NCBI GenBank assembly: GCA_963726195.1
Contig: CAVSBO010000005.1
Span: forward strand, 160,001 to 224,000
Length of the DNA stretch: 64,000 nt
Direction of reading: 5' to 3'
DNA from: Candidatus Thorarchaeota archaeon
GTDB lineage: Archaea; Asgardarchaeota; Thorarchaeia; Thorarchaeales; Thorarchaeaceae
This document shows, in pieces, positions 10,873-27,216 of this stretch; within the stretch, counting starts at the first letter, position 1, and the number at the start of each line of letters is the position of its first letter. The notes below the pieces were generated by a model, which saw only the letters and a program-made list of their open reading frames with translations, was not told where the DNA came from and did no database searches. Made by a program: the position numbers and the translations under genes.

Positions 10873-12156
10873 CTAACCAAGTCTCTTCATCCTTGCAGAA
10901 CATTCAACTGCCCTCGCATTATCGCCGTTCTGTTTGAAGAGAGACGCCGCGATTTGCCATGTTCTCTTCGCTTCAGCGTTTCTTTTTAGCTTCTCAAGTA
11001 TCAATCCACGTTGGTAGAGATGGTTAGGGTTGTTCGGTTCAACAGAGAAGGCGGCATCAAAATCAGTCAATGCCTCTTCGAGTTTGCCCATAGAGACCTT
11101 CAGAAGACCCCGTTGATGCGCGAACACAGGGTTCGAGGCGTCCAGACCCAATGCTGTATCGAAGCAGTTCATGGCAGCAGCCGGCTCGCCCAACATCTGT
11201 AGCGCTTGGCCCCACTTGCTCCAAGCATCACCGCTATTGCCGTCCGCATTGGTCGCTTTTTCATAGGCGTCCGCCGCCACCACGTAGGACTTCATCATTC
11301 TATGAGCGTCGCCCTTACGAACCCACAGGCTAGCGTCATCGAGCTTGAGTTGGACGGCTCTGTCATAGTAGTAGAGCGCTCTGTCATACTCTTTGCGGGC
11401 ATAATAAGCATCGCCCAGATAGGCTAGGGCGTAGGGTTGCTCGCGGTCGACATCAGTTGCCTTCTGAAGTGTGTCTATTGCGTTTTCATTCTGTCCTGCT
11501 AAGAAGTATGTCTTCCCAAGTTCTGTCAGGGCAGAAATCGAAATGGGGTTCGCTTTCAGAGCACTATTGAACCATGCTATGGCTCCTGCTCGATCACCCT
11601 TGCTCGCGAGATATACTCCCTTCGCGACCATTGCTTTGTCAAAAGCCGGGTTCTGTTTCAATGCATGTTCGATGCTTTGGGCGGCCTTATCGTTGTCTCC
11701 GAGCTCCAGCTGAGCCATTGCCAGGTCCACCAGTGCGTTGACATTGTCAGGCTGGATTGCTAGCGCGCTTGATACGCGGCCGATAGCGTCCTTTGGTTTG
11801 CGATCCATGAGATACGCCGAACCCATGTTTATCAGTGCATCAACCTGCTTGCCGTCTATCGTCAGAGCGAGTTCGTACAGCCTGAGTGCGTTCGGGAGGT
11901 CACCTTCTTTGAAATGAAGGTTTGCTAGTCCGGTCAGCAAGCCAGGAAGCCTCGTATCGCTCTTGGCTGATTCCATAACTCCCTTCAGCTCTTCTTCAAG
12001 CTCCTCTAGGGCCCTTCGCTCCCTTGAATCGACGGTCGGCTTTTTCACCTTATCAGGGTCCACTAAGCCTTTCGGCCCTATTGCCTCCAGCTTCGTCTCA
12101 ATTGCAGAGAGGATTTCATCTGCCTGCACAGCCCTTTGCCCCTCGAGTATTCCCAT
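10873..12156 (-). CDS. Tetratricopeptide repeat protein (about 10 TPRs)
   Basis: 34-aa periodic A/L/G/Y pattern, e.g. ALAYLGDAYYARKEYDRALYYYDRAVQLKLDD. Confidence 0.92.
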   Translation of the reverse strand: MGILEGQRAVQADEILSAIETKLEAIGPKGLVDPDKVKKPTVDSRERRALEELEEELKGVMESAKSDTRLPGLLTGLANLHFKEGDLPNALRLYELALTIDGKQVDALINMGSAYLMDRKPKDAIGRVSSALAIQPDNVNALVDLAMAQLELGDNDKAAQSIEHALKQNPAFDKAMVAKGVYLASKGDRAGAIAWFNSALKANPISISALTELGKTYFLAGQNENAIDTLQKATDVDREQPYALAYLGDAYYARKEYDRALYYYDRAVQLKLDDASLWVRKGDAHRMMKSYVVAADAYEKATNADGNSGDAWSKWGQALQMLGEPAAAMNCFDTALGLDASNPVFAHQRGLLKVSMGKLEEALTDFDAAFSVEPNNPNHLYQRGLILEKLKRNAEAKRTWQIAASLFKQNGDNARAVECSARMKRLG

Positions 12157-12271
12157 CTATGTCTTATCAACTCTATGACATGTGCTATAGCACTACGAGG
12201 ACGTCGTACGATAACCTTTGGTTGTCGAGAGGAGGAACCCGGTGAGTTTGATGTTCTCGCCCGAGTTCTCT

Positions 12272-26012: not shown

Positions 26013-26034
26013 TTTCTCTTCACCTTCTCTTGTT

Positions 26035-27216
26035 TCAGTCCAAGGTTCCTTTCTTGGAGAAAACAAACGTGGCAAGAAGAATCGCGCCTATGGAGAATGC
26101 TAATAGCTTTGATATGGGCAATAACAGCTGTTGGAGTGCAAGGCCTTTGAAAGCAGTATCGATCAACAGTTTCATGCTCTGATTCATTGGCATGTACTGG
26201 TCCAGCACACCAACATCAACAAAGAATCCTGCAAGAATAAGAGTTGCAAACATAACAAACAGAAACATCTGATTAGCCTGCAACCTTGACGAAGCTACTG
26301 CAGAGATTAGAATGCCCGTTGCCGAACCGCTAAGGGAGATGAGGGTCATGACTATCACTAGGACTTCAAAGCCCGTGTTGAGGCTCAAGTTGAATGCAAT
26401 CACCCAGAGGGATACAAGCAGCAGGGACTGAAAGAACCCGACTATGACATATGCCGCGACCTTGGCGACCACAACCTCAAGCCTGTTTGTCGGCGTGAGC
26501 AGCATACGGCGGAGCGGCACGTCCCCCACTATTGACTGTGCCCCAGTCATTGCAATTCCCAAATAGGCAGAGAATACGACAATGAACCCACCGAATATAG
26601 TCGCGACATATCCACCCTTCGGAGTAAACTCGATGGTTATTGAAGGAAAGACTTCCGATCGAATCCACATCTTGGAGGCCCTGAACAGGATGGTTGCCGC
26701 TTGCACAGTGGTCATCACTGTGCTCTGCTTAATCATTTGAGTAGCATCCACGTGTAGCTCAACGTACGTAGGTTGGTTTATTGTCAAGTTGGCTTCGAAC
26801 CCATCGGGTATGACTACGTAGCCGTCTATCGTTTTGTTGTACAGACATTGGTAGGCTTCGTGAGTATTGTTATAGATTATGAGCTTGGTGACGAACAACC
26901 TAAGGTATGCGGTGAAATTGTCAGAAAGGTCCACGCCATTGTATGTTCTTGTGGTGTCAAAATCAATGACACCCAGATTGATATCGGATTTAAGCGTGGA
27001 GTTGCCACTACTACCGCTGCTTTGACCTTGCGTACCTCCTATCGTCAGAGTTCCTAGGTCACTAACGCCGATGACGTACCAGAGGACTCCGATAAGCACC
27101 GTGGGAAGAAGAAAGATCAGGAACAGGGCCATCCTATCCTTCACTATCAGGCGCAGTTCCTTCGCAATCATGTTTGTTATGCGGCGTCGCGGTTTGGTCA
27201 GAGTCTCTGCCATCAT
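26035..27216 (-). CDS. ABC-2 type permease (YhgE/YbhS-like) with extracellular domain
   Basis: MIAKELRLIVKD, TM1, VVIPDGF extracellular loop, LLTPTNRLEVVVAK, five further TMs. Confidence 0.9.
   Translation of the reverse strand: MMAETLTKPRRRITNMIAKELRLIVKDRMALFLIFLLPTVLIGVLWYVIGVSDLGTLTIGGTQGQSSGSSGNSTLKSDINLGVIDFDTTRTYNGVDLSDNFTAYLRLFVTKLIIYNNTHEAYQCLYNKTIDGYVVIPDGFEANLTINQPTYVELHVDATQMIKQSTVMTTVQAATILFRASKMWIRSEVFPSITIEFTPKGGYVATIFGGFIVVFSAYLGIAMTGAQSIVGDVPLRRMLLTPTNRLEVVVAKVAAYVIVGFFQSLLLVSLWVIAFNLSLNTGFEVLVIVMTLISLSGSATGILISAVASSRLQANQMFLFVMFATLILAGFFVDVGVLDQYMPMNQSMKLLIDTAFKGLALQQLLLPISKLLAFSIGAILLATFVFSKKGTLD

Follow-up and report, generated by a model that had tools for sequence, protein, structure and literature searches.

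In a 64,000-nucleotide stretch of a Candidatus Thorarchaeota archaeon genome (assembly GCA_963726195.1, contig CAVSBO010000005.1, positions 160,001 to 224,000; hereafter the window), six minus-strand genes encode an ABC-2 permease of the ATP-binding cassette (ABC) class, two ATPases, a large membrane protein joining an inactivated subtilase (S8) domain to a GIFT domain, a giant calcium-binding surface protein (putative adhesin), and a tetratricopeptide repeat (TPR) protein. Judged from sequence comparison, this is a near-universal, single-copy operon of Thorarchaeia, and its conserved core, which comprises one or more ABC-2 permeases, two distinct ATPases with intact motifs, and the dead subtilase-GIFT membrane protein, spans several Asgard classes. 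Our preferred reading, to which we assign a probability of about 0.48, is that this core would export a lipid or lipid-linked glycan for the envelope, while the pseudoprotease, tethered and non-catalytic, would serve as acceptor or scaffold. The features concerned are the following:

26035..27216, minus strand: ABC-2 (type V) permease, 393 residues (PF12698, PF01061, six transmembrane segments)
24333..26012, minus strand: ATPase 1, 559 residues, TTG start (PF00005 and ABC motifs)
25281..25976, minus strand: tandem TrmB-like barrels within ATPase 1 (PF11495 positions 161-231)
19986..24326, minus strand: pseudo-subtilase membrane protein, 1446 residues (domain profiles and structure model)
22902..23834, minus strand: dead S8 domain (Asp174 and His217 kept; Asp311 and Ala414 substitutions, Ala414 codon at 23085-23087)
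22077..22877, minus strand: predicted beta-supersandwich of the glycoside hydrolase (GH) GH15/GH94/GH116 N-terminal-domain type (VIA fold match)
20337..21371, minus strand: GIFT and membrane-proximal immunoglobulin (Ig) domain (profile match, VIA, and Foldseek)
19004..19984, minus strand: ATPase 2, 326 residues (motifs intact)
12272..19007, minus strand: giant single-pass surface protein, ~2244 residues if read through (domain profiles)
12275..12598, minus strand: cytoplasmic Ig-like tail of the giant protein (hhalign, VIA)
10873..12156, minus strand: soluble TPR protein, 427 residues (domain profile)
27555..30003, plus strand: divergent (alpha/alpha)6 glycoside-hydrolase-like gene (Atlas feature score)

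A preliminary description of this DNA had reported tight head-to-tail packing, and the gene coordinates agree: 22 nucleotides separate the permease from ATPase 1, 6 separate ATPase 1 from the subtilase-GIFT gene, and 1 separates the latter from ATPase 2, which in turn shares a 4-nucleotide TTGA overlap with the giant gene, followed 115 nucleotides later by the TPR gene. The TTG start of ATPase 1 agrees with the start of a 91% identical orthologue at a relative's locus (L031). The two very large products are likewise single-pass proteins with folded tails, as had been described, each with an N-terminal hydrophobic signal and one C-terminal transmembrane helix followed by basic residues. Scanning the operon for sigma-70 promoters and terminators gave chance-level results, the sigma-70 model being unsuited to archaea. 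In this assembly the giant gene is divided into two open reading frames (ORFs; 19007-16845 and 17014-12272) over a span of 6736 nucleotides (3n+1), with one extra base at ~16,890-16,905 (a +1 frameshift) that three genomes of the same genus lack. Since 6 of 43 conserved genes tested are split likewise, including genes that we read as GluRS-like and DNA-ligase-like, and since 40 relatives carry an intact ORF (2196-2277 residues), this frameshift is probably an assembly error; the same observations disfavour a programmed frameshift or a pseudogene.

Within Thorarchaeia, the order permease-ATPase 1-pseudoprotease-ATPase 2-adhesin was recovered at 49 of 60 loci (48 by script, plus one mislabelled locus). 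Loci lacking the full order mostly stop at contig edges, and none of the 60 is reordered. A first search returned a full-length orthologue of the 1446-residue protein in 36/36 same-family genomes, the nearest named relative by this large subtilase-like protein being Ca. Thorarchaeota archaeon OWC5 (83% identity). Two single-contig assemblies (77% and 86% completeness) carry a broken locus (L048/L154 in G027, L109/L155 in G385), one with the adhesin cut at 818 residues and the other with the operon split ~460 kb apart within the pseudoprotease gene.

We traced the core beyond this class, genome family by genome family, with a profile of the N-terminal extension of ATPase 1. This extension was detected in 80/85 Thorarchaeia genomes, 17/19 genomes of family f12, 5/5 Jordarchaeales, 6/6 Freyarchaeum, 3/3 Helarchaeota, 4/4 Sigynarchaeota, and 8/14 genomes of the Lokiarchaeum/Harpocratesius family (f29); the 0/135 obtained for family f9 is a query miss, and genome G198 of that family carries the full core. 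The permease family, with the query used, was found in none of several other Asgard families (e.g., 0/31, 0/12, and 0/4). Across 1.84 billion representative proteins, 22 clusters match the ATPase 1 extension, and the named ones are all Asgard. Core genes are clustered, in differing orders, in Thorarchaeia, f12, Freyarchaeum, Sigynarchaeota, Helarchaeota, and the Lokiarchaeum/Harpocratesius family, with the pseudoprotease gene divergently transcribed in Freyarchaeum and Sigynarchaeota. The preliminary description had raised a search for the five-gene order across Asgard genomes: it is conserved in Thorarchaeia, but elsewhere only the core is found, in other orders and without the adhesin. In cultured Ca. 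Lokiarchaeum ossiferum (UYP44142-UYP44146), the genes run ATPase 2, permease, permease, ATPase 1, pseudoprotease, NEF87_000428 being a permease and NEF87_000431 the pseudoprotease, and Ca. Harpocratesius repetitus and Ca. Freyarchaeum deiterrae also carry the core, which is therefore experimentally testable. Asgard database entries annotate these genes generically as "S8 peptidase", "ABC permease", or even "BtuD". Two variant arrangements were seen in Helarchaeota: in loci of family f25 (L078-L080), Ras-family GTPase genes and coiled-coil genes separate ATPase 1 from the permease, and Helarchaeota-type loci L219 and L232 encode the pseudoprotease, one permease, ATPase 2, and a divergent ATPase with winged-helix/PCI/UFL1-like N-terminal repeats rather than TrmB barrels.

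The pseudo-subtilase comprises, in order, a signal, a prodomain, the dead S8 domain, a beta-supersandwich, two Ig-like domains, the GIFT domain, a further Ig domain, a transmembrane helix, and a conserved 75-residue helical cytoplasmic tail. The loss of protease activity, previously proposed for this protein, is borne out across orthologues: here the oxyanion Asn is replaced by Asp311 and the catalytic Ser by Ala414, with Asp174 and His217 kept, and among 82 orthologues the Ser is kept in 5 and replaced in 77, the oxyanion Asn is nearly always Asp, and the catalytic His or Asp is also lost in several. With such a site in every lineage, the domain is, by its residues, catalytically dead across lineages. 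In a structure model of residues 478-1340 (pLDDT, the predicted local distance difference test, of 80), the supersandwich is predicted to resemble those of glucodextranase 1ug9 (VIA Z 22.0, root-mean-square deviation [rmsd] 3.0, 237 residues aligned) and glucoamylase 1lf6 (Z 20.5); it occurs without the catalytic barrel of GH15/GH94/GH116 enzymes, and PF09137 matches weakly in 5/29 sequences. The GIFT domain has a profile match to IFT52 (5fms, E 8e-11; VIA Z 22.1, rmsd 2.4), and together with its Ig neighbour it matches OST48 at Z 17-18, which points to an OST48/Wbp1-like arrangement. The top Foldseek match of the non-protease part is site-1 protease (9csd, E 2e-10). Orthology to this enzyme was considered and is not supported: the S8 sequence is nearest to Tk-SP-type enzymes (archaeal Tk-SP, E 7e-41), with site-1 protease absent from the best 60 PDB matches, the MBTPS1-specific PF23090 is weak (5/29, best E 6e-4), and the triad is lost. 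Because the S8 domain is closer to Tk-SP, the likeness to site-1 protease is one of architecture and does not show orthology. Unlinked Asgard S8-GIFT-transmembrane paralogues with an intact triad are encoded at L070:7516-11331 (plus strand) and L071:11492-15430 (minus strand), and their architecture is nearer to site-1 protease than that of the dead copy. A Thorarchaeia S8-GIFT-type paralogue of ~970 residues lies at G000:C3:637038-639997, split in this assembly.

Both ATPases retain Walker A/B, Q-loop, LSGGQ-type signature, D-loop, and H-loop in all lineages, are predicted to be active, and form two separate clades across Asgard lineages in the tree. This complete motif set, together with the six-transmembrane ABC-2 domain, matches type V (ABC-2) exporters; the top NCBIfam match of both ATPases is DrrA (166 and 177 bits), below its cut-off. 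In ATPase 1, an intact ABC domain follows two tandem TrmB-like beta-barrels and is itself followed by a C-terminal DrrA-type extension. PF11495 positions 161-231 (of 233) match the N-terminal extension in 27/27 orthologues (best E 2e-11), and a PDB sequence search with this extension returned no TrmB match. In TrmB, all but one of the seven sugar contacts lie in the second subdomain, Gly320 and Glu326 among them (PMC4158304). The first barrel copy has a T-V-G-G-x5-E-D motif spaced like these residues, the equivalent sites being Gly in 36/64 sequences (Ser in 17) and Glu in 47/64, with Ser and Glu in the window protein; because these sites are only partly kept, sugar binding by the barrels is possible, yet unproven. 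A complex prediction combining ATPase 1 (residues 14-478), the permease, and the transmembrane helix and tail of the pseudoprotease (64-row alignments) scored 0.05 against a threshold of 0.32, which counts neither way. Stand-alone one-barrel TrmB-like proteins of 139-162 residues are also encoded (G000:C8:66452-66871, minus strand; L090:7781-8269).

The permease has one transmembrane helix, an extracytoplasmic domain of ~150 residues, and then five further helices, i.e., a full exporter-type transmembrane domain with invariant residues. It matches PF12698 (E 1e-20, 74 bits, cut-off 31.6) and PF01061 (40 bits, cut-off 26.9), and its top NCBIfam matches, RbbA and SagH, are far under the family cut-offs. 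The best PDB matches of its profile are insect ABCH-type "ABCG23-like" chains (9ju6/8z01/8yzp, E 3e-13 to 7e-13), and the ABCH transporter TcABCH-9C of Tribolium transports ceramide (PMC12578276). A second, orphan permease, 41% identical and with no ATPase nearby, is encoded elsewhere (G000:C3:571850-573025, plus strand; locus L158:9851-11026 / L180) and occurs in 40/41 Thorarchaeia genomes; the Lokiarchaeum family has a second permease inside the operon, and Sigynarchaeota have an orphan copy. The Thorarchaeia permease dimer would thus probably pair the operon permease with the orphan paralogue. The orphan gene is usually found two genes from another S8-like secreted protein of ~670-700 residues.

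A sister system found in many Lokiarchaeia (L220, L227-L231, L234, L236) bears on how these parts may be joined. It comprises two permeases of the same family, a free ATPase, and a 1000-1080-residue fusion protein consisting of a signal, a ~680-residue ectodomain of the prenyltransferase/terpene-cyclase-type toroid, a transmembrane helix, and an ABC domain of the ATPase 1 type. This fusion is present in 8/8 complete sister loci, and its ABC domains share the diagnostic motifs of ATPase 1, grouping with it and not with ATPase 2 (support 100/100). By analogy, we infer that the family is built to one design, in which two permeases are combined with an ATPase-2-type chain and with an ATPase-1-type chain that is attached to a surface ectodomain. 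Since the sister ectodomain is fused to an ATPase-1-type domain, the comparison suggests that the pseudoprotease is tethered non-covalently to ATPase 1 through its transmembrane helix and conserved helical tail. Protease and adhesin are both missing from the sister system, whose loci continue with two conserved genes without a Pfam match. The link between operon and sister system, the orphan permease, and the presence of the core in Ca. L. ossiferum were examined in this analysis.

The giant protein consists of a signal, an FG-GAP/BBS-like beta-propeller, ~70 bacterial TSP3 calcium-binding repeats, a transmembrane helix, and an Ig-like tail. Its repeats have a 23-residue period with 23% Asp and match PF18884 above cut-off (506 and 156 bits), with NCBIfam and Atlas matches to bacterial TSP3 proteins (Atlas shape matches, TM-score 0.54-0.58); ~38 N-glycosylation sequons occur along the protein. 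The fold matches listed include none from the PDB for the repeat stalk, an absence that is not evidence of a new fold. The protein has a near-fixed length (2259 ± 15 residues), and the repeats are conserved position by position (66-81%, versus 49-58% for the propeller), which sets it apart from a stalk that expands freely. The tail is the best-conserved part (77% column identity) and shares homology with the domain of adaptin/coatomer type in a UFL1-adaptin-Vps28 fusion protein of Lokiarchaeia (hhalign 97.7%, E 1.8e-12, reciprocal best match in this genome). Its predicted fold matches the gamma-COP appendage (VIA Z 11.1), tied with transglutaminase (Z 11.2), an unrelated Ig fold; PF02883 of the GAE family reaches E 0.058 in 1/40 sequences, and Atlas leads stay below 0.9. 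A coat function is only a lead, because the appendage ties with unrelated Ig domains; the tail is firmly linked to the Asgard adaptin-like domain alone. The tail domain recurs in a conserved 730-800-residue Lokiarchaeia Zn-finger-UFL1/PCI-adaptin-like-Vps28 protein (L146-L153) and gives weak matches in a further two proteins encoded by this genome (G000:C4:161969-164245 and C17 ~37747-38271). At 48678-51044 (plus strand) the window encodes a 788-residue fusion of an FG-GAP/BBS-like propeller, related to that of the adhesin (E 1e-29), with a C-terminal Ras-family GTPase. Two further readings were rejected: a toxin, suggested by a Binary_toxB Pfam match that covers only calcium-binding loop repeats, and a BBSome/IFT-like complex, suggested by BBS-propeller, GAE, GIFT, and TPR matches, the propeller matches being generic to FG-GAP and seen in other genes of the genome.

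Tail orthologues of the adhesin were found in Thorarchaeia only; adhesin orthologues were found in 0/19 f12, 0/5 Jordarchaeales, and 0/6 Freyarchaeum genomes, and Lokiarchaeia gave only weak matches to a soluble protein. On this distribution, the adhesin is a lineage-specific addition of Thorarchaeia and, being found only there, is not the purpose of the machine. This speaks against the preliminary proposal of a complex that displays, remodels, or signals from a long adhesin, since Freyarchaeum, Sigynarchaeota, the Lokiarchaeum/Harpocratesius family, and f12 have the transporter and pseudoprotease without an adhesin orthologue, as do Jordarchaeales. The adhesin may nonetheless be a Thorarchaeia-specific client or partner of the machine, given its translational coupling to ATPase 2, from which it is never parted in intact loci.

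Taken together, these results are consistent with a type V (ABC-2) exporter that would combine a pair of permease chains and two dissimilar ATPases with a large single-pass accessory on the outside. The pseudo-subtilase would stand beside the permease, held at the ATPase 1 side by its transmembrane helix and cytoplasmic tail, and would act as a non-catalytic acceptor, gate, or scaffold for extruded cargo. The likeliest cargo would be an envelope lipid or lipid-linked glycan, a glycan being hinted at by the TrmB barrels, the glycosidase-type supersandwich, and the OST48-like GIFT-Ig-transmembrane end. The TrmB-like barrels might serve in tail docking or cytoplasmic sugar sensing, and the giant protein could be a co-translated surface stalk, specific to Thorarchaeia, that uses or accompanies the machine without being its evolutionary purpose. 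Several observations weigh against this exporter reading. Fold matches show no function, and the ABCH match spans only the transmembrane half of the permease and is remote, at the level of 12% identity. Freyarchaeum, Jordarchaeales, and f12 have one permease only, and in the tree the second permeases stem from separate duplications. The TrmB sugar site is partly kept, and searches of ATPase 1 gave no match to the first TrmB subdomain, whose Ser229 helix completes that site, or to the helix-turn-helix domain. Finally, Jordarchaeales have both transporter and pseudoprotease, with the pseudoprotease gene unlinked.

Other readings of the same genes differ mainly in what the pseudoprotease would do. 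It might be part of a mechanotransducer, in which the permeases, driven by ATP, set the pseudoprotease in motion, and the latter binds, folds, displays, or releases surface proteins (the adhesin in Thorarchaeia), nothing small being exported. There is precedent in NosDFY, a type V ABC system that moves an outer partner, and in GldA/F/G, on which other envelope proteins depend for stability. Peptide binding can survive the loss of catalysis in an S8 site; translation of the adhesin is coupled to that of ATPase 2, and the adhesin keeps its place in the order at 49 loci; and its near-fixed length, with repeats better conserved than the propeller, suggests a fitted part. However, the core is present in f12, Jordarchaeales, and Freyarchaeum, which have no adhesin orthologue, and the sister system lacks protease and adhesin alike, so that we consider this reading unlikely, if a serious competitor. 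That the pseudoprotease is instead a receptor for an outside peptide or glycan, with the ATPases relaying inward and the TrmB-like barrels adding sugar input, appears quite improbable. Pseudoproteases such as CspC do act as receptors, the architecture is receptor-like with a conserved cytoplasmic tail, ATPase-1-type chains carry varied add-ons (TrmB barrels, winged-helix/PCI repeats, ectodomain), and Ras-family genes lie within Helarchaeota f25 loci, but no conserved kinase, regulator, or other output gene is found near the core, and the permease keeps its full exporter-type transmembrane domain with invariant residues.

Two readings make less of the assembly as a whole. If transporter, pseudoprotease, and adhesin were merely co-regulated neighbours, co-expressed without forming a complex, the unlinked pseudoprotease gene of Jordarchaeales and its divergent orientation in Freyarchaeum and Sigynarchaeota would be readily understood. 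We nevertheless hold this to be very unlikely: the linkage outlasts repeated rearrangement across classes, nearly always with the permease or ATPase 1 as the adjacent gene, and in the sister system an ectodomain is fused to this type of ATPase. We give the least credence to an efflux pump for peptides or drugs, akin to DrrAB or the lantibiotic-immunity systems, in which peptides would be caught by the dead protease. The top matches to DrrA, RbbA, and SagH point that way, and the commonest annotated ABC2 homologues in Thorarchaeota are TC 3.A.1.105 drug exporters (PMC7997004), but the scores are far under the family cut-offs (312 and 1050 bits), and a single-copy system in 80/85 Thorarchaeia with vertical-looking trees fits a housekeeping envelope role better.

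The envelope exporter that we favour, if real, would represent a new ABC architecture, with two unequal ATPases, one of them tethered to an exchangeable surface ectodomain. It bears on two open questions, namely how Asgard archaea build their wall-less, protein-decorated envelope and what cargo is handled by GIFT-associated ABC systems such as GldA/F/G, and it places in a prokaryotic setting domains known from eukaryotic IFT52, OST48, site-1 protease, and vesicle coats. A bolder proposal, which we regard as a long shot, is that of an ancestral Asgard envelope-biogenesis machine, in which an asymmetric ABCA/ABCH-like lipid exporter was joined to a GIFT protein resembling site-1 protease and OST48, and to which Thorarchaeia added a giant surface receptor whose cytoplasmic adaptin-type ear recruits membrane-remodelling proteins. 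Were this true, lipid export and membrane budding would be coupled at adhesion sites, and the machine would anticipate parts of the eukaryotic secretory pathway.

Genes flanking the operon are less tightly associated. The TPR gene, which the preliminary description had attached to the system, has the position claimed; being within 300 nucleotides of the adhesin in 20/37 loci, and within ~4 kb in the remainder, it is a loose member. On the other side, most Thorarchaeia have the (alpha/alpha)6 glycoside-hydrolase-like gene oriented head to head with the operon, and only in this class is it a usual neighbour. It is 798 residues long in a relative and two ORFs in this assembly, has an Atlas feature score of 0.97 to alpha-L-rhamnosidase-related clusters, and gave no match in a Pfam search; its membership in the system is unproven. 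Frequent downstream neighbours of the operon are a threonine-synthase-like pyridoxal-phosphate enzyme (window 9559-10634, minus strand) and a GNAT-domain protein of ~1000-1100 residues (window 3078-6387, plus strand), both frameshift-split here. A GH38 alpha-mannosidase-like ORF without its N-terminal domain (window 34221-36380, minus strand) is probably another split gene.

The preliminary description had recognised no described system of this composition, and our literature search, with paywalled papers outside its scope, turned up no paper that describes the system or mentions its accessions. It had also pointed to the GldA/GldF/GldG module of Bacteroidota, a likeness that holds for composition and fails for family models: GldF and GldG NCBIfam models gave no match at E 0.001, PF09822 reached 16 bits (cut-off 34.7), and the GldA equivalog TIGR03522 reached 97.1 and 131.8 bits (cut-off 402.6). 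As in Flavobacterium, an ABC ATPase, an ABC-2 permease, and a membrane-anchored GIFT protein are encoded together. Unlike GldA/F/G, however, the Asgard core has two distinct ATPases, one with TrmB-like barrels, a permease with its own extracytoplasmic domain, and a GIFT domain that lies within a 1446-residue pseudoprotease and is nearer to IFT52 than to the GldG-type Pfam family. Localisation of GldA depends on both GldF and GldG, the GIFT protein GldG being required for the ATPase to be localised at the membrane, and GldA/F/G are required for gliding and for the stability of the envelope proteins GldJ/GldK (PMC9127263). Neither an outer membrane nor a type IX secretion system goes with the Asgard core (genes of that secretion system were not searched for in this genome).

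Other known systems share individual parts. The permease layout, with an extracytoplasmic domain between the first and the remaining five helices, and the DrrA-like ATPases are common to insect ABCH (TcABCH-9C), eukaryotic ABCA, and the prokaryotic DrrAB, RbbA-YhhJ, and SagGHI systems; ABCA also has two unequal halves, and ABCH-type chains are the best PDB match, but the Asgard core is made of separate polypeptides and has a large single-pass accessory and TrmB-like barrels. Site-1 protease (MBTPS1/SKI-1), whose S8, P-like, and GIFT layout has been described (PMC11231238), has in common with the pseudo-subtilase a signal, prodomain, S8 domain, beta-sandwich, GIFT domain, one transmembrane helix, and short tail; the Asgard protein is dead, has an additional supersandwich and Ig domains, and is linked to an ABC transporter. 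OST48/Wbp1 and IFT52 share the GIFT fold, and OST48 also the GIFT-Ig-transmembrane end, although here the GIFT domain is embedded in a much larger protein and no STT3/AglB or IFT partners are present at the locus. With the effector-binding domain of TrmB from Thermococcales, ATPase 1 shares the second beta-barrel subdomain, with a partly kept Gly320/Glu326-type motif, but it has two copies, neither a first subdomain nor a DNA-binding domain, and a fusion to an ABC ATPase. The DxDxDG calcium-binding repeats of the giant protein, with their 23-residue period, are those of bacterial TSP3 surface proteins such as CglD and MtsC/MtsD of Myxococcus, here fixed in number at ~70, position-specific, and combined with a propeller, a transmembrane helix, and an adaptin-like tail. 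That tail is the Ig-like domain of Asgard UFL1-adaptin-C-Vps28 fusions (Liu et al., 10.1101/2020.10.19.343400), and the domain content of the Lokiarchaeia UFL1/PCI-Vps28 protein fits the adaptin/coatomer fusion reported there; whereas those fusions are soluble proteins of 730-800 residues, in Thorarchaeia the domain forms the inner end of a giant membrane protein.

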